From: a virus
IMG/VR virus record: IMGVR_UViG_3300037245_003482
Span: 10,015 to 74,014 of that record
Length of the DNA: 64,000 bases
Reading direction: 5' to 3' (one strand)
How positions within the stretch are numbered: the stretch's first letter is position 1; every line of letters starts with the position of its first letter. The translations under genes were made by a program, and so were the position numbers. The notes under the pieces are model-generated. The model ran no database searches, had not been told where the DNA came from, and worked only from the letters and a program-made list of their open reading frames with translations. This document shows positions 6,778-44,666 of the stretch, piece after piece.

Positions 6778-6788
6778 CCCCTATTATA
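6778..6788 (-). promoter_or_regulatory. TATAATAGGGG promoter motif upstream of the UvsY-SSB-RecA operon
   Basis: Exact copy of the 13-copy motif, intergenic and correctly oriented. Confidence 0.75.
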
Positions 6789-16253: not shown

Positions 16254-16403
16254 CCCCTTATATAAAAAGTTGTGCGGGTAACACTTCAAAATAAAAGCCA
16301 ATGTTCAACATTTTCATATAGCCCATGTCCCCTGCAAATAACATCCTAATACTTTTTTAAAAAATAATGCATTAGTTTAAAATATTCCTTTATATAATAG
16401 GGG
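16254..16403. promoter_or_regulatory. divergent control region: TATATAAGGGG (minus, 16254-16264), T6A6 box (16353-16364), TATAATAGGGG (plus, 16393-16403)
   Basis: Both repeated motif classes occur at the strand switch between the two gene arms. Confidence 0.75.
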
Positions 16404-18516: not shown

Positions 18517-19065
18517 ATGTCTTATTACATAACGAACCCGGGCAGTGATTCTGCTGAAAAAATTGAAGCCCTTTTTAAAGAATACCAAAAATGCAGGGTA
18601 CAAAGGCACAAGTTTGCAAAAGAACTTGGGGCCACAGATTACCTTGTAAGCCATCATTTCACTGAACGTGGTATTAGTGGTTTCCGTTTTGCTTCTAAAA
18701 AAGGCATATACTGCATCAATGATGAACTAAAAGCCAAAGAAGACGGAAAAGTACCTAAGGGGCTGCGTTTCGACAGAAAATTGGGTGCTTGGGTTCTTGC
18801 ATTAAAAACAGCTGAAGGTAAATTACTGCAATCAAAACTTAGAGCATTGCCAAAAGTAATACCAGGTAAAGCACGGCTGCTGCTTTCCACCACAGACAAC
18901 CCAGATTTAAATATTGGTGAAATAAAACGCATTGTTAAAAAGTGCCCTGTAAAAAGCTTAAGGGGCGGTTTTACCTTTATAACTGGCCTTTTTTCTAAAG
19001 GTGAAGTACCAAAAGATTGCAGGCCAATAAAAAAATCACGTTATTATTACCTTTTAGGTGAATAA
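18517..19065 (+). CDS. basic hypothetical protein
   Basis: ORF with an AGGAG RBS. Confidence 0.65.
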   Translation: MSYYITNPGSDSAEKIEALFKEYQKCRVQRHKFAKELGATDYLVSHHFTERGISGFRFASKKGIYCINDELKAKEDGKVPKGLRFDRKLGAWVLALKTAEGKLLQSKLRALPKVIPGKARLLLSTTDNPDLNIGEIKRIVKKCPVKSLRGGFTFITGLFSKGEVPKDCRPIKKSRYYYLLGE

Positions 19066-19101
19066 ATAGTAACACATTACTTTTAATATTGTATACTTAC
19101 T

Positions 19102-19650
19102 GTGAGTGGCAGAAGTAATTACCTGCACACAAAACACTCGCTCTTTTGGTAATGGGAGGGGGGGCAACCCCCCTAATCTTTCCTAATGAGGGCGGGCGAC
19201 CCATTATCATAAAATTGGAAAACCCCATTTTTATGTGTTGAATAAACTTTGTACGCTCTACATATACGCCCATTAGAAACTGGGGCCCTTAATACCAGTT
19301 TTAACCGTTCTGCAACCCCTGATGGCAACTGAAAGGGGCTCGAAATGCCTTACGTGCGTCCTTTTGTATTATGCATTTGAAACAAGGGCCCAGGCGGAGC
19401 AGGGTATGAACCAGGCCGTCGAAACTCGAGGGGCAGCCCTGGGACCCACATTGCTGGGGAAAATGTATCAAACGCGCGCTGTCCCAACAAATGACACCTG
19501 TACAATGGGCAACCATTGACTAGGCTATATTGTAGGTTGTGAAGTCAGTAAAGAGGGCCACAGTGCAAGCAAATGCACTAATCGATATAGAGCATCCAAT
19601 AGAATACACTAAAAGTGGGACCTAGGCGTACAGTCTAGGAAAACTCCGCC
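19102..19650 (+). ncRNA. candidate large structured non-coding RNA
   Basis: 700-bp gene-free gap, CpG-richer than its flanks, with consecutive hairpins (GCAA loops, G-U pairs). TATACT -10 at 19092-19097. Confidence 0.55.
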
Positions 19651-19767
19651 AAATTCCTAAAAGTAAAGTATATATACCTATGTCTCTTATGTTCCTATGT
19701 TACTTTGTATTGCGGGGGTGGGGGGTTATCATTATAACTTTTTATAATAGGGGTAGGAGGATATTTT

Positions 19768-20674
19768 ATGACTAGAATTGGAATGATAGGTTTTGCAAAT
19801 GCCTTGGGCCTCGGTGCAGCAGAGCCTAATGCAATCAGGATATTAATGGACCTACGGTTCAAATGTGTTAAGGCAGGCTATGATATCCCAGAAATTAATA
19901 ATATACCTGGGCCACATGCTGTGGCAAAATTAGCATGGTTACGCAACCACATTGCAGAATTTAAAATAGAGGTTGAATAATGCTTTTTGCCAAATTAACA
20001 TGCACCAAGGACACTACATCTGGGGTAAGCCAATATGGGCGTGTTTATTACCACCCAATAAACCTTGTCACAGAAATTTCATTTGGAAGAGTTAATAGTG
20101 AATTAGGCAGAATACCTGGGCAATCTGTATTGCATATTGGGGCTGGTCCTGAGGAGTACAACTTAGACTATTTCAAATTGGAATGGGTTGATGAAAGTGT
20201 TATGTGCAAAGAAACAAATGGGTACGGGGGTGTAATATGAAATGGTACCTGATTTATGATAAAACAAATGTAAAAAAGGGTAAAAAATACCTGGTAAAGG
20301 CTGCTAATTGGTATGATGCTGCAGATTATATAAGGGACCTAAACAGAAAAGCAGGCTTCCCTCCCCATGTTAATTTTGTTATCAAAGGCGTTACAAATGC
20401 CCTTGTGCCGTTTTTAAAAGAGTGTATTGATTTTGATACTAGAGGCATAAAAGTAGTAAGTGCCCCAGAAGCACCAAAAAAGGTATTCACAGATGAATAC
20501 CTTGAATCAGAAATACTGGGTTTAAAGGCCATAGTGGACGATACAATGCAGGGCGCCCCCGATAACCTTAAAGATGGTATATTGGAATCATTAACAGCCC
20601 AGACACGTGCCACATTTGAAACAATGCAGAAATTAGAACAAGAAAGAATTGACGAGAGGGGTAGTAATACCTAA
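19768..20674 (+). CDS. three coupled hypothetical genes (19768-19980, 19980-20240, 20237-20674)
   Basis: TAATG and ATGA overlaps, following the promoter motif at 19743-19753. Confidence 0.65.
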
Positions 20675-22315: not shown

Positions 22316-22345
22316 TAAACTATTAACTTTTTATAATATGGGTGT

Positions 22346-37409: not shown

Positions 37410-40387
37410 CATAAGCAGAAAGGAATAATATGAAAAAGAGTAAATTTAAGAAAGGTGACCGGGTGGTTGCTTTGATTAATCAGTATAGAGCTGGTGATGT
37501 GGTAGTGAAAGCAGGGCACAAAGGCACCATATTGGAGGAAACTGATGTACCCTTTGTTGAATGGGATAAATTTGTTAATGGGCACTCAGCCAACGGTTTA
37601 GGCAAAAAGGGCCATTGTTGGTGTAATGAGGGGCACAACCTTAAAAAGGTACCTTGGTATAAAAAGCTATTAGGTTTGGGGTAATATATGAGCAGCTTAA
37701 AACTAAAGACCAAATGGGTAAAACACCCAAAAGTACCTGTGTGGGAAAACAACAAGGGCATCCGCATCCATGTTTCAGGTGGTCTATTAGGTAAACCAGG
37801 CACCCATTTCCTTTGTGTTGTGCGGGACCATATGGTAAAGGAACCTTACAGCTATTTCTACAAATTAACGGGTGGCAACCGAAAACGGGCCCTTATGGCA
37901 GCAGCTGAGGAAATAGCAGCACCTGGTTCATTCTATCATGCTGTGTTTATTGGGGAACATAGCCCATTGAAAGGTTTTATTGATACACCTGCATTGGAGC
38001 AAATATGAGCCGTTTAAAACTAAAGACCAAATGGAAAAAATCAGGGATAGGTAGTTGGTTTAATGCTACCTATACCACCTTGTGGGTGGGCCGCCCACTA
38101 GATATTTGGTATCCAAAAAATAGCCCCATGGATATTTGGCATTCAAAAATAACTACTTCGTCCACCCCTTTGCAAATAAATACTAAGCACCCACGGTATT
38201 TGCATATGCTCAAAGTAACAGGCTGGAACTACAAAAGGGCAACAATGGGTTATGTAGAATGGCTGATATCAGGGAAAGAACTATGAGCAACAGGTACAAA
38301 GGCCGCAAAATGCCCTGGGTGTATAAGTTACAACGGGCAGAACAATCACCATGTATCAATTGTGGGATGCCTGGTAGCCATTTTATCCCACCATCACTTG
38401 GGGAAGAAGGTTTCTTCCTATGTACAAAACCAGCCATATTGGAAATGGCGCATAGGCTTATTGAATGGAAAATAGGGCAGGAAAGCAAGAAAGGCCCATT
38501 GCCACTTAAGGACAAAATGCCTGATTACTCTGATGCAAGGGGGCCGGGCATAGCTGCTTGGGTAGAAAAGCAATGTAAGGGTATGTCGGTTAGTTATGTG
38601 CCTGGGGGTGTATTTGCCTTTAGCATAGGGGGCACAGCAGAAATGATGAATATAAAAGGTACTGTGGAAATATGAAACCAATTACATCTATCATAGGGCT
38701 AGAATTTATACCAGGGGCCACGGTAGCATTAAAAAAGGACCAAGAACCAGTGGGGAAACTATTGGACATCTGGTGCTTTCACAATAAAGGGCCTATAGCT
38801 GTAGTTCAGTTACCCAATGGAAAAAGGGGCAACTGGGACTTATCTTTATTATTAGTAGTTGAACAAAGTGACAAGAAAGAGGAGTAACCATGTCAGCTGA
38901 AATAATTGAACATAAGCATGAAAATGGAAATGTTTACCATACCACAGTTATCTATGATGCTATTGGAACCACGTTGCCCATATTATCAATTATAGAGCAG
39001 TACCAAAGGACTATCCCCCCTGCACATATTATACATGTTATCTGTACTGTGGATCAAATACATCCATTCCCAGATTTCGTAGACACCAAAACCAATACCT
39101 ATTTGGATAAACCAATACACCATTCCGAAAAGTCAAAACAGATAAATTGGGACCGGGTAGCTGTATATGTAAATACACCTGAAGATTGTGCCCAATGTGT
39201 ACAACAGATAAAAGAAAGCGTGAAACAATTACCTGCTCCCCCAATTAATACCTGGAAGCTTAGAGACATACCAAACCCAACACCTGAGACACCATTTGAT
39301 AAAAGAAGCTGTTATGACTGCTGCCACATAAGAGCAGCATGCAGCTTGTGGTGTGGTAATACAAAAGCTAGGAAGGCCAGGGGCACATCAATACCCGGGT
39401 GCATCCATTGCCCATATTGGGGGCCTGCTTGGAAAATGATAACAAAGGAATACAGGACAGCAGAATATGGTTATGTATCCAAATGGCAAAAGTTTAAGAA
39501 ATTCCTTTATAACTTATTATAATAGGGGCAGGAGGCCATTATGATAGTAAAAATGGAAGTAGGTGCAAAGGTTGAAGTATTGAAAAACTTAGGGACTAAT
39601 TCCACTTTTGCCACACAGGAAACAGCGACCAGCAAAGGTGAAATAGTAGCAATAAAGTCTATTTTTTACCCTTATTTGTATGCAGTATTAAGGGCAGATG
39701 GCAAAGAGGTTTTAGCCACAGGGGCACAAGTGAGGGTGGTGCAGGATGAATAACAGATTTGGGCTTGATGTAGCTTATTACCGTAAAGAACTAAAGGCAC
39801 TTAGTGATTCATTGGTGGACAGAACACCAGAGGAACTTAATAGGTACCTTTTGACCATGGCTGGTAAGAAGCCTAGTACAAAAGAAGAGGCAACAGTAAC
39901 AGTGCCCCCATATGTAAAAAGTGGGTATGCCAAGCTTATAGCAGACTTTGCTGAAGATTTACCAGAGCAGCCAAATGTGGCCAAGGTTTTGAAGCAGGCA
40001 AGGTTTACATTATGTACTATTTTCCAGGGGCATAAAGAAAGTATGTCATTGCATGGGTACCATAACCGTGTTTGTGATTTTTTGCATGATTTAGAAATGG
40101 AACATAAAAATAGTGAAGAAAAGGAAAAAGAAGAACCAGTACCTGTCTATAACCTAGAAGGGTGGGCTAAAATACAAAAGGCCCTAGCAGAGGATAAGAA
40201 CTTATCACATGCTATTCTATTCCCAGAAAAGGAACCATGGCGCAATGCTGAACTTAATGCAATGGCCCGCGCTATTGTAGGGGAAACAATACAACCAGGC
40301 AGCAAGGATTTCTTTGTTGATTTGGTGTACAAAATATTAAAAGAAGTACAGAACAAGTTTACCCATTAACTTTATATAATAGGGGTA

Positions 40388-40595: not shown

Positions 40596-40669
40596 CGTGA
40601 TGTAGCTCAATTGGTGGGGCGCCTTGCTTATAGGTAAGGAAGTAGGTGGTTCGATTCCATCCATCGCGG
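40596..40669 (+). tRNA. tRNA-Ile(TAT)-like gene with an 8-nt anticodon loop and no encoded CCA
   Basis: Acceptor CGTGATG/CATCGCG, D arm GCTC-AATTGGTG-GGGC, anticodon arm CCTTG-CTTATAGG-TAAGG, T arm GGTGG-TTCGATT-CCATC. Confidence 0.75.
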
Positions 40670-41819
40670 CTTTTTAAAGAGGATAATATGACCCACAATG
40701 AAGCATATGAAAAGTACCCTGAAATAATGGGCATTAATAAACCAGCAAGAATGCCCCCACCTGTTATTTTTGAACCAGCTGAAAATGTTACGACCCTTAT
40801 ATTCCTTGAGATCATACAGGCAAGGGTTACAATGTGTGAAGTGTTGGCCTATGTGCTATTAGTGCAGAAACAGGCCCCAAAGCATCATATTATTTATTTA
40901 ATGGGCACTGAGTACCAATTCCACCCGTTTGTAGGCTACCACATGTTAAATGGGGGCACAATAGAGGCACAGGACCCCATTTATACTTATGATACGTTCT
41001 TAGCTGAATTAGATATGAGCAGGATGGTACTGGCTTCTGTTAGTTGTGGGGCAGAAGCCCATTGTTTCATAGAAAGAAGAATGGAAATAGGGTATTAGAT
41101 GTCAGAAGAACTAATAATAGTAATAGCATGGGAACAGCTGCACAAGGCCCTTATTGGCTTTCGTAGGAAAATAGGGTGCAATGTACCCATTACCCAAATA
41201 AACTTTGATAACATAGTTACAGAGGCAAATAAGGGACTGGAAAAAGAATGCCCCGGGTGTGCTATTGAACAGTTGGATTTCCAGGGGTATTTGAAACATG
41301 GGGCTATTAAAGTTAAAAACATGGGCACTGATGAGCAATTGGGCCCAGAATGTGTTATAATAGGGTAAAAGGAGTATAAAGTGGCAGATGAAAATGAAAA
41401 AGAAGCAATTGTAGAAGGAAAAGAAGAGGCTATTGATGCCATAATTGCCATAATGAAAGGGTGTAAATGCGATAAGGAAGCAGCCATTGTGCTATTGAAG
41501 AGGGGGCAGGCAATCATACTACAGGCCTATGATACTGTTACTGAGGAAGAAATACAAACTGAACTGATACGGAGGGCATAATGCCAAAGTTTAAGAAAGG
41601 TGATACAATACGGGTGCATACACCAGATTTAATCAACGCCCTTTGTGCAAAAAGGGGAGCCATTGGTAAAATACACCATTTGTCACTATATGGAGGAGGG
41701 GCTTACGTCAAGTTTCCAGGGTACCGAGGACTGCATTTAATTTACAACAGGGAAGCCTGTGTTATTGTGCAACCAAGCACCAGCCCAGCAGCTGCAACAA
41801 TGATTGTGGGGGCCTGGTA

Positions 41820-42459: not shown

Positions 42460-44666
42460 AGTAGAAAGGGAATAAAGGAGTAGGGTATGTGTAACATTTG
42501 CCACGAAACAACAAATGAGAAAGAGGTGTATGATAGGCATTGTAATAAGGTGCACCCAACATGCCTGGACAACTATAATTTATGGGATGTGGATTCTGCC
42601 TATCATTACCAATTTGAAGCGGCTAATGATAAAGAGGCTTTGGAAAAAGCGGCTGCCTTCTTACAGGAACATAAAAGTGAGTACAGGCAGAAAAATGTGG
42701 TGCAGAACATAACAGGAACCATTTTATATACTGGGGCACTTACTGCCAAGAATGTACATTATTCTGTGTTTGAATGTTGCAGTACAGTGGGGGAAGTATG
42801 ATTGAGGAATTTCTTGAAGTAGGGGACCGCTGTAGTGTTAAAGGGTGTACTGGGACATTGGATGCCATTTACAAGGGTGATAAATGCACATGCAAGTGTG
42901 ACAACCCACCTAATCTTCCATGTTGGTACTGCAGTAGATCTGTTCCTAAATGTGATACTTGTGGAAACAAGCCAAATGGGGGCAGCGTATGAACGCACAG
43001 AATGTATCCAAGAGCCTTAAAGGACTAATAAAAAGAAGGGTCAACACAACCCTAATGGAAATAGATTATAGTGCTAAACTAAAGGAAGTGTCCATTAAAA
43101 CACACCCTGCATTCAAACGCATTGTTTTCACAGGCCTCGGTATGGAAATTGAAAAAAGGGAAGATGGCTGCAATTGCTACATTGGGCCAATACCAACCCA
43201 CATAATAACCAGGGCAACTGATGTGGAAATACTTGCATGGGCCAAGAAAGACGAAGGTGCAATAATAACCTATTGGGGAAACTATGAGCACAATTAAATT
43301 AAAAACTAAATGGGCCCAATGCAAAACAAGCACAGTATGGGAAAATGAACATGATGTAAGGGTGCATATATCGGGTGAACTTATTAGAATACCTGGTTTT
43401 AAGCCACAGGAGACAGCGGCCATCGGCCTAACAAAATACAAAAAGGAAGCTGGTTACTACTGGGCTCTGAAAGCAACAGGGGGGCAATACAAAAAGGGCC
43501 CTTATGTGTATGGCAGAAGAGTTCTACAAGATACAGAAGTGGCAGGAGGGGTTATGCCCATAATAACAATAATAGATGACCCTGTTCCAATGAAAAGTTG
43601 GGATATTGAAACAGCTGCTGGGTTTAATGCCTGCCAGTTGGTACATAGTGCAATTAAAGCAGGGGAATTGCCCATTATGGTAGCAGAGAACTGCCGCAAA
43701 GTGCACCCAGCCATACGGGGTGTACGGGGGGCAAGCAAGCCTTTTTGGGTCCAATGTTACCCATATCTAGTTATGGAACAGGTGTATAAGGACATGGAAG
43801 CAAAAATGCCTTTCGGGCGATGGTATAGCAAAAAGCTACTAGAAGCAGCAGAAAGGTACACAAATGCCTATATCAATAAATTAATACAAAAACAGGAAGA
43901 AGACCTTAATAAATTTGTGTCCCCTGTTATGTTGCAGGTAAAGGAATATTACAAATGACTTTATTCATTTGTGCCTTAGTATTCATAGGGACAACAAGTA
44001 TTGCACTGTTATTATGGGCATTGTTTATGTGGCTTTGTTCCAAAATACCAGAACGGTTTTGTAAATAACTTGTTATAATAGGGGTAGGAGGAATAATGGA
44101 TATAAAGCTTTTAAAAGTAGGGATGCATTGCTACGTTTTAACAACGCTGCATGGGCCAACTGACAACAGCATGGGCACAAGCGTGACAAAGTGTGAAATA
44201 AAAAGGGTAATAAATAAAGAATACCCATTTTTATATAATGTAGAACGAGTTGATGGTATATGGGCAAAACCCAAAGGGGACCAAATAGTGCCCACTGAGG
44301 TTTTGGATGGCTCTGCCCCTAATTCTTTAAGTATTGGGTATCATGTGGAACCTGTACCAAAGAAAGAGCCTCCCCCCGCTGCTTTTGCTGGGCACAAGAA
44401 AGGAACCCAGGTTGATTATATTGGCCCTTTGAATTCATTAAGTGGCAGGTGGACTGTGCTTGGGCATGACAAATTCGGAAAACATTTTATCCTCTACAAA
44501 TTAGGAAAACCTGGTATAACAGAATACAACCCTGATTCTCCCTGCTGCAACAGGGCCCATTCTTCAGAGCTTAAAGTGGTAGAATAAAAGGCCCTTTTTG
44601 TTGGATTGGGTTAATTGGGGCTAATAACCCCATTTCTTTTTATAATAGGGGTACAAAGGTGGTTTT

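Follow-up and report, generated by a model that had tools for sequence, protein, structure and literature searches.

The question raised by the locus described here is what occupies the 702 nt between positions 19066 and 19767 of a window of 64,000 nt—the whole stretch of DNA that was analysed—taken from the 74-kb IMG/VR virus record IMGVR_UViG_3300037245_003482, a marine sediment sequence with a completeness estimate of 88%. The phage belongs to a clade without a cultured relative, no isolated phage having a DNA polymerase more than 24% identical to its own. Gene orientation in the window switches at ~16.3 kb, the genes on the left side running leftward and those on the right side rightward. 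The rightward genes comprise, in this order, a 334-aa ORF, a 124-aa ORF, a sigma-factor-like protein matching Sigma70_r2 and phrog_351, and a 182-aa ORF (p182), the TAA stop codon of which (19063-19065) marks the beginning of the gap. Behind the gap, a 70-aa ORF (p70) starting at 19768 precedes small ORFs and the genes of a DnaG-type primase and an SNF2 helicase, the replication genes beginning 100 nt downstream of the element dealt with below.

An initial annotation, made from the letters of this DNA alone, had singled out the gap as the largest one in a tightly packed genome and as richer in CpG than its flanks, and had proposed that it is transcribed into a large folded RNA of a new class, with a replication origin as the alternative. 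Both descriptive points hold. No other internal stretch of the window is free of genes over such a length, the next one measuring 457 nt, provided that a non-conserved 65-aa ORF (19322-19519) is discounted; besides this plus-strand ORF, the 702 nt contain some minus-strand ORFs, none of all these being conserved. The CpG observed/expected ratio is 0.59-0.63 in the gap and in its conserved core (19263-19600) versus 0.42-0.43 in the flanks, and the GC content reaches 43.9% in the gap and 49.4% in the core, compared with 37.5% and 40.8% in the two flanks.

Protein-guided searches and DNA-pattern scans of viral, metagenome and genome collections reached two homologous contigs, both IMG/VR phages, namely L006 (IMGVR_UViG_3300031565_000016; = L007/L008/L033), with a primase 73% identical to that of the window, and L032 (IMGVR_UViG_3300009314_000009; = L034), with a primase ~63% identical. 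Both have a gene-free stretch at the same place, alignable with that of the window (alignments A1, A3 and A4), and in all three contigs the element is found after the sigma-factor gene and before the p70-primase genes, despite gain and loss of the neighbouring ORFs. L006 is devoid of the 156-aa ORF of the window, and L032 of the 182-aa gene, its complete sigma-factor gene directly abutting the element; L032 moreover possesses a homing-endonuclease gene (L032:5093-5668; phrog_314, E = 1.5e-20) between the tandem repeats that adjoin the element and the p70 promoter. Since the neighbouring genes vary in this way among the three phages, the element is the constant feature of the locus between the sigma gene and p70-primase. 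Among the neighbours, p70 alone is conserved in all three phages; its AlphaFold model is an uninformative, low-confidence helical hairpin, the Atlas being likewise uninformative, and the neighbouring small proteins gave no family hit. A similar element was absent from the distant primase relatives L009-L031 (at most 39% identity). It should be noted that two closer relatives have been seen as proteins only, i.e. P0002 (61% identical to p182, on a 3.4-kb contig) and P0005, and that in public data the stretch was found in DNA contigs and in no RNA run, the second of two DNA samples giving no coverage of the gap. A hit in Pedobacter (L035) was rejected as a chance match, lying inside an ORF and having nothing else in common with the locus, and the 17 other hits of the last DNA pattern were likewise discarded as chance matches.

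With regard to the coding potential, the gap had been called non-coding from the beginning, and this stands: no reading frame opens in it under translation table 11, or with TAG read as Q, TGA as W or TAA as Q. The core (19263-19600, ~340 nt) exhibits nucleotide identities of 73, 61 and 64% in the three pairs of phages versus 69, 61 and 66% for the primase gene, i.e. a higher value in one pair and equal or slightly lower values in the two others, the primase gene being the best-conserved gene nearby and the adjacent p182, p70 and sigma genes showing 57-66%. Conservation is uneven within the gap. When the window is compared with L006 in 30-nt windows, the segments from 19263 to ~19420 and from 19488 to 19562 are 73-90% identical, and a linker preceding the core (19176-19262) only 33-57%. 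The variable sites of the core are distributed evenly over the three codon phases (0.48/0.49/0.50), in contrast to those of the primase gene (0.42/0.27/0.73); its indels of 1, 2, 4, 5, 7 and 9 nt break the frame; and the similarity obtained on translation is spread over several frames and both strands simultaneously. Owing to this uneven conservation, the absence of 3-periodicity, the frame-breaking indels and the multi-frame similarity, the core has to be regarded as functional and not as protein-coding: the element is a functional non-coding sequence under purifying selection, neither a decayed nor an overlooked gene.

The element matches no described RNA family in Rfam. The check by cmscan suggested at the outset returned, for the window against Rfam 15 at the gathering score, only a tRNA and left the element unmatched; a scan of 18900-19900 at E<=10 gave one chance hit outside the element, and the homologous loci of L006 and L032 yielded nothing at E<=1. 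The covariance models of the ROOL RNA (RF03087) and GOLLD RNA (RF01998) remained unmatched in all three copies, both at the gathering score and at E of 1-10. By blastn, the gap had no match in 50,697 phage records, and the 8-kb neighbourhood gave short hits only, all of them in unrelated genes. The claim of a new class is thus borne out in so far as no Rfam family matches any of the three copies.

The folding statistics delimit how much of this element can be regarded as structured. Folding of the window sequence alone, proposed as a check in the initial annotation, went against the idea, neither the gap as a whole (z = -1.31) nor its core (+0.15) folding with a better energy than shuffles; among the statistics that did not DISCRIMINATE are precisely these single-sequence MFE z-scores, which are not significant. 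Consensus folding of the three sequences by RNAalifold was judged by z-scores against column shuffles calibrated on coding-gene alignments from the same three genomes (primase and SNF2; 36 windows in total), in which 24 windows of 220 columns had a mean z of -0.9 (sd 1.2, minimum -3.3) and 12 windows of 405 columns a minimum of -2.5. For the two hairpins at the 5' end of the element, P1 and P2, taken together, z was -7.4 to -10.9 (plus strand) and -8.5 to -9.6 (minus strand), so that neither strand is favoured. The 3' half of the core gave -5.7 to -5.9 on the plus versus -2.0 on the minus strand, and the whole core -4.2 versus -2.25. The 5' half of the core, with -2.1 on the plus strand and -1.2 to -1.5 on the minus strand, lies inside the control range, and the linker (0.06 and 0.62, respectively) has no consensus structure. 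Two parts thus have a consensus structure above the coding controls, namely the 5' hairpins and, on the plus strand only, the 3' half of the core; in these the original idea of a folded RNA is supported, whereas in the 5' half of the core it is not.

A structure of 14 helices with 71 pairs, derived from RNAalifold and inspection, was proposed on the alignment A4, where 96% of its cells are paired. It contains 21 pairs changed on both sides versus 9.3 ± 2.2 after shuffling (0 of 500 shuffles reach 21), and sliding the partners leaves only 0-2 double-changed pairs. The 19 G-U cells against 4 A-C cells point to the plus strand. It should be pointed out here, however, that the coding alignments of the same genomes yield 5-24 of the RNAalifold 'double changes', equal to the raw counts of the element, and the figure of 21 is therefore inflated by the choice of the structure; a blind count of conserved or covarying stacks likewise did not separate the element from the coding controls. 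With three sequences, covariation is below the R-scape standard, and double-change counts alone are not evidence. The comparison with homologues, proposed at the outset together with a covariation test, thus provided two homologues in synteny, but raw compensatory counts no different from those of coding sequence at n = 3. Because the raw counts fail to separate, the structure claim rests on the control-calibrated z-scores and on hairpins bounded by conserved anchors. The latter are the unalignable segments P1, P2, Hv, He, Hx and Hi, each of which, folded alone, forms one end-closing hairpin in every phage, all 14 of the 14 z-scores being negative (-0.2 to -4.1); these segments were chosen after inspection, and their behaviour is supportive and not a formal test.

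The predicted anatomy, with all coordinates on the plus strand, begins with the hairpin P1 (19102..19141), consisting of an outer stem 19103-19108/19135-19140 and an inner stem 19109-19112/19123-19126. The outer stem is written with different letters in the three phages (TGAGTG/CACTCG, TAGGCG/CGCCTA and TAAGCA/TGCTTA), so that the GTGAGTG/CACTCGC pairing originally listed is conserved as three different stem sequences at one place. The hairpin P2 (19156..19174) has a G-run/C-run stem, GGGGGG/CCCCCC, changed to GGGGUG/CACCCC in L032; its score is terminator-like in two of the three phages, the window and L006, where the U tail is weak. Of the hairpin AGGGGGG-GCAA-CCCCCCT described for it, the stem is kept and the GCAA loop is not, the loops being GCAA, UUACA and AUCUC. 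The variable linker follows (19176..19262), its only feature common to the phages being a T5 run. Two of the stems first proposed fall with it, since they involve this unalignable and unconstrained sequence: the 10-bp stem TGGTAATGGG/CCCATTATCA, one partner of which it holds, and the stem CATAAAA/TTTTATG.

The conserved core (19263..19600) would consist of a ~260-nt multi-branch domain followed by a second domain. The former is closed by the long-range helix Ha (19268-72/19521-25), which reads GCCCA/UGGGC in L006 and GCCUA/UAGGC in L032 and has one C-A mismatch in the window. Its first branch, H3 (19276-83/19295-302), is the stem GAAACTGG/CCAGTTTT of the initial annotation and is invariant in both homologues. 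The next branch is formed by Hb (19306-08/19352-54), Hc (19312-14/19346-48) and H4 (19316-20/19334-38), the 13-nt loop of H4 being near-invariant (12 of 13 positions identical), and is succeeded by Hd (19355-56/19391-92) with H5 (19358-62/19385-89), the latter occurring as GUCCU/AGGGC, GUCAU/AUGGC and GUUAU/AUAGC. H6 (19393-97/19416-20; GGCGG/CCGUC versus GGGGG/CCCCC) better replaces a CCCAGG/CCTGGG stem suggested before, which is broken in L006. The remaining branches are Hv (19430-37/19478-85), a variable, lineage-specific hairpin, and He (19503-08/19513-18), i.e. the hairpin CAATGG-GCAA-CCATTG, which is conserved in both homologues. In the second domain, Hf (19526-32/19583-89), present in the variants CUAUAUUG/CGAUAUAG, CUGUAUUG/CAAUACAG and CUGAAUUG/CAAUUCAG, encloses Hg (19535-38/19556-59) and Hx (19562-67/19574-79). 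Hx corresponds to the AGTGCA/TGCACT pairing, which is kept in L006 with three double changes but nearly lost in L032. The element ends with the 3' hairpin Hi (19612..19649), with the inner stem 19621-27/19633-39 and the outer stem 19615-19/19645-49; the inner pairing CCTAGGC/GTCTAGG, listed from the beginning, is conserved in both homologues, and the homologous segments each fold alone into one hairpin (z = -2.8, -3.8 and -4.1). A U tract or terminator was not found after Hi.

All the stems first listed are indeed present in the window sequence. Comparison with the relatives shows conservation of six of the ten; of GGGAC/GTCCC, only the presence of a hairpin at the corresponding place is preserved, and the remaining three lack conservation. 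The GNRA caps, to which importance had been attached, are mostly not conserved across the three phages; the sole invariant GCAA is in the H4 loop (19321-19333), absent from the original list. The near-invariant loops and junctions include GA(U/A)GGCAACUGAA in the H4 loop as well as GUGAAGUnnGUAAAnAGG, and a box C/D-like UGAUG...CUGA motif capped by GCAA is among these nearly invariant loops. Such loops would be expected for tertiary contacts or for a site binding a protein or ligand, rather than for simple hairpins. The element is in sum a credible but unproven candidate for a new RNA, its support being less dense than originally thought.

Concerning possible signals around the element, the TATACT box at 19092-19097, noted before as a -10 box, is present and forms part of a candidate sigma-70-like promoter on the plus strand (19069..19097; GTAACA-17-TATACT, 9/12 match). 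All three phages have a -10-like box at a distance of 5-8 nt in front of P1, namely TATACT in the window, TATATT in L006 and TATAAT in L032; at the homologous position, L032 has TTGCTA-18-TATAAT (10/12), and L006 keeps the -10-like box only. Shuffled sequences give at least as many sigma-70-like matches per region, so that the argument for a promoter is limited to the conservation of the position. The core itself is bounded by neither a clear promoter nor a clear terminator. Downstream of the element, the promoter motif of the next operon, AACTTnTTATAATAGGGG (19734..19753, plus strand), is followed by AGGAGG and the ATG at 19768, so that p70 has signals of its own outside the element.

Between the 3' hairpin and this motif there is an AT-rich stretch (19671..19704) in which a 17-nt unit is weakly repeated in tandem (two copies, 76% alike), besides three copies of CCTATGTT. 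At the homologous place L006 has 16 nt x 2.1 plus (AT)10, and L032 15 nt x 4.6, 98% alike; tandem repeats thus stand directly 3' of the element in all three phages, their sequences being unrelated between phages. In L032 the repeats adjoin the element, and the p70 promoter is located 600 nt further, behind the endonuclease gene. Because these repeats stay at the element despite the displaced promoter, they belong with the element and not with the promoter.

Based on the non-coding purifying selection, the synteny, the lack of an Rfam match and the control-calibrated, in part strand-specific structure, the region from ~19100 to ~19650 would, with a likelihood somewhat above even, encode a new structured RNA of the plus strand, possibly tied to the replication module. 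As predicted from the three sequences, such an RNA would be built of P1 and P2, the unconstrained linker, the ~260-nt multi-branch domain closed by the long-range Ha with the branches H3, Hb/Hc/H4, Hd/H5, H6, Hv and He, the second domain in which Hf encloses Hg and Hx, and the 3' hairpin. It would be an early transcript, initiated at the weak sigma-70-like promoter in front of P1 or else forming the last part of the sigma-factor operon RNA, and may act as a folded RNA or an RNP. Given the fixed position of the element and the lineage-specific repeats attached to it, the most concrete guess is that it acts on the replication module together with the AT-rich tandem repeats, by activating the origin, by priming or by controlling the operon; this guess is tentative and held at well short of an even chance. 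Otherwise it could be a stand-alone 'ornate' RNA acting in trans.

Several observations have to be weighed against this reading, above all those pointing to the DNA itself. The replication origin considered from the beginning receives some support from the tandem repeats behind the element: hairpins in single-stranded or extruded DNA would serve as priming or assembly sites, and the AT-rich repeats as iterons with an unwinding element, next to the primase and helicase genes. Tandem direct repeats beside an AT-rich region, the arrangement of an iteron origin, occur in all three phages, weakly in the window; with a period of 15-17 nt they immediately follow the element in each, are lineage-specific as expected of iterons co-evolving with an initiator, stay in L032 with the element and not with the downstream promoter, and are joined in L006 by the (AT)10 run. 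The replication genes start 100 nt downstream, and P1 and P2 are equal on both strands. The core, however, has a strand-specific structure rich in G-U (19 versus 4), and G-T pairs are poor in DNA. Known iteron or ssi origins do not have the appearance of the core, with its predicted multi-branch domain of 260 nt, its invariant loops and its raised GC. The repeat of the window itself is weak, at 76% over two copies, no initiator was found among the neighbours—the p70 model being uninformative—and the cumulative GC-skew minimum lies at ~16.3 kb and not at the element, albeit confounded there by the gene-orientation switch. An origin acting at the level of DNA, the main rival, is considered rather unlikely. 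The same equality of P1 and P2 on both strands would also suit a patchwork, in which P1, P2 and the T5 run are terminators of the sigma operon and the core is a cis-regulatory leader or a protein-binding platform for the replication operon. P2 being terminator-like in two of the three phages, the unconstrained linker between P2 and the core, the absence of an evident promoter for the core, and the 5' half of the core, conserved in sequence with a structure signal within the controls, are all in line with it. The promoter of the downstream operon, however, follows the element, in L032 600 nt beyond it and behind the homing-endonuclease gene, and since it lies after the element, the core is not the leader of its transcript. 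As to protein binding, the many different palindromes would each require a different DNA-binding protein, and the plus-strand asymmetry of the 3' domain argues against double-stranded sites, leaving the patchwork rather improbable.

That the element has no function at all, its conservation reflecting recent common ancestry and its hairpins chance, is suggested by the small number of three sequences, by naive covariation counts equal to those of coding controls and by the ordinary single-sequence stability. It is nevertheless very improbable in view of the linker, which in the same gap has fallen to near-random identity while the core is conserved like the primase gene, and of the 5' hairpins and the 3' domain, with alifold z-scores well outside those of the 36 control windows. 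Still less credence, close to none, is given to a degenerate mobile intron or ribozyme relic. The idea is brought up by the homing-endonuclease gene that directly follows the repeats of the element in L032, but this gene is absent from two of the three copies, no group I (RF00028) or group II model matches any copy even at E of 1-10, and no gene is interrupted, the flanking ORFs being complete with their own stop, promoter and RBS.

Returning to the structured RNA, its closest counterparts would be ROOL and GOLLD, large 'ornate' RNAs often borne by phages or prophages (PMC5737381, PMC12286853) and capable of self-assembly (PMC12286853). The element shares with them a length of several hundred nt, an intergenic, phage-borne and ORF-free location, a multi-branch fold with conserved loops (predicted here) and an unknown function; it differs from them in matching neither covariance model, in being represented by only three contigs of uncultured sediment phages, and in its fixed place between sigma-factor and replication genes with tandem repeats after it. 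By this analogy, a trans-acting RNP or an RNA that assembles by itself, as they do, would be just as compatible with the invariant loops and the multi-branch fold. It is possible, though somewhat doubtful, that the element is the founding member of a new class of ~0.5-kb multi-domain phage RNAs, either as the RNA component of a replication origin together with the repeats or as an RNA-only or RNP particle like ROOL and GOLLD.

Transcripts linked to origins offer a second comparison. The RNA II primer of ColE1 is a folded, origin-linked transcript of ~550 nt, and at the primary origin of T7 and at oriF and oriG of T4 a promoter is followed by an AT-rich unwinding element. The locus resembles these systems in the succession of a promoter-like site, a ~550-nt transcript predicted to be folded, AT-rich repeats and replication genes. 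It has, however, no sequence relation to them, with no antisense regulator or RNase H site identifiable, and the origin transcripts of T4 and T7, unlike the one proposed here, are not elaborately folded. For the first 80 nt only, the adjacent P1 and P2, starting a few bases after a -10-like box, recall the put RNAs of HK022, in which two hairpins just after the promoter make RNA polymerase resistant to terminators; P2 is, on the other hand, terminator-like, and there is no sequence similarity. The likeness to phage group I introns with homing endonucleases is confined to a structured RNA-like element of a few hundred nt with an adjacent endonuclease gene in one relative, the element differing from them in all the respects named above, i.e. 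the uninterrupted host genes, the lack of an intron-model match and the two copies devoid of the endonuclease.

Large, elaborately folded RNAs are rare in bacteria and phages, and those described, such as ribozymes, OLE, ROOL and GOLLD, opened new biology or RNA architecture. The candidate is compact enough for chemical probing and cryo-EM, and is available as three natural variants that differ in most helices. If real, it would connect a folded RNA, in a way open to experiment, with the replication or the early gene control of a phage; should it instead be an origin at the level of DNA, the place where replication starts in an unstudied phage group would nevertheless have been located. As to the downstream promoter motif AACTTnTTATAATAGGGG, it is present in the window in 12 copies (at most 3 mismatches) versus 0.02 expected, the inspected copies being positioned just upstream of genes.

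The motif AACTTnTTATAATAGGGG recurs at 12 sites between positions 6778 and 44651 of the window, against 0.02 expected by chance, examples being found at 16384-16403, 19734-19753, 22323-22342, 39509-39528 and 44065-44084. In the copies inspected, genes start just downstream of the motif, which is usually followed next by AGGAGG; its -10 box is strong, with no evident -35 box. Since the sigma-factor operon itself is preceded by a copy (16384), the host polymerase is the likely enzyme to recognise the motif. It should be noted that a G-run, GCGGGGGTGGGGGG (19712-19725), lies directly ahead of the promoter downstream of the candidate structured RNA; this run is absent in L006, a homologous phage contig carrying the element.

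The set of genes flanking the element varies. L006 has no counterpart of the 156-aa ORF (20204-20674), and L032, a second contig with the element, none of the 182-aa ORF (18517-19065); the latter ORF has only one other relative, 61% identical, among 5.8 billion proteins. L032 also carries a free-standing homing-endonuclease gene (L032:5093-5668; phrog_314, E = 1.5e-20) with a GIY-YIG-like N-terminus, inserted between the repeats of the element and the promoter of the 70-aa ORF p70, and missing from both the window and L006.

Concerning the element itself, the core hairpin H4 (19316-19338) has a loop that is nearly invariant in the window, L006 and L032 and contains UGA(U/A)G-GCAA-CUGA. This may be a box C/D-like arrangement, in which a GNRA tetraloop closes a pair of tandem G-A-capable motifs; its asymmetry is at odds with a canonical kink-turn.

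L009 ranks next among the primase relatives, at 39% identity; directly upstream of its primase gene sits a tRNA-like sequence (L009:296-365) rather than a long structured gap. The window has a tRNA gene at 40596-40670 (Rfam, 44 bits), to which ARAGORN was unable to assign an anticodon ('tata'; 8-nt loop CUUAUAGG); this may be a tRNA of the frameshift or suppressor type, or else a decoy.
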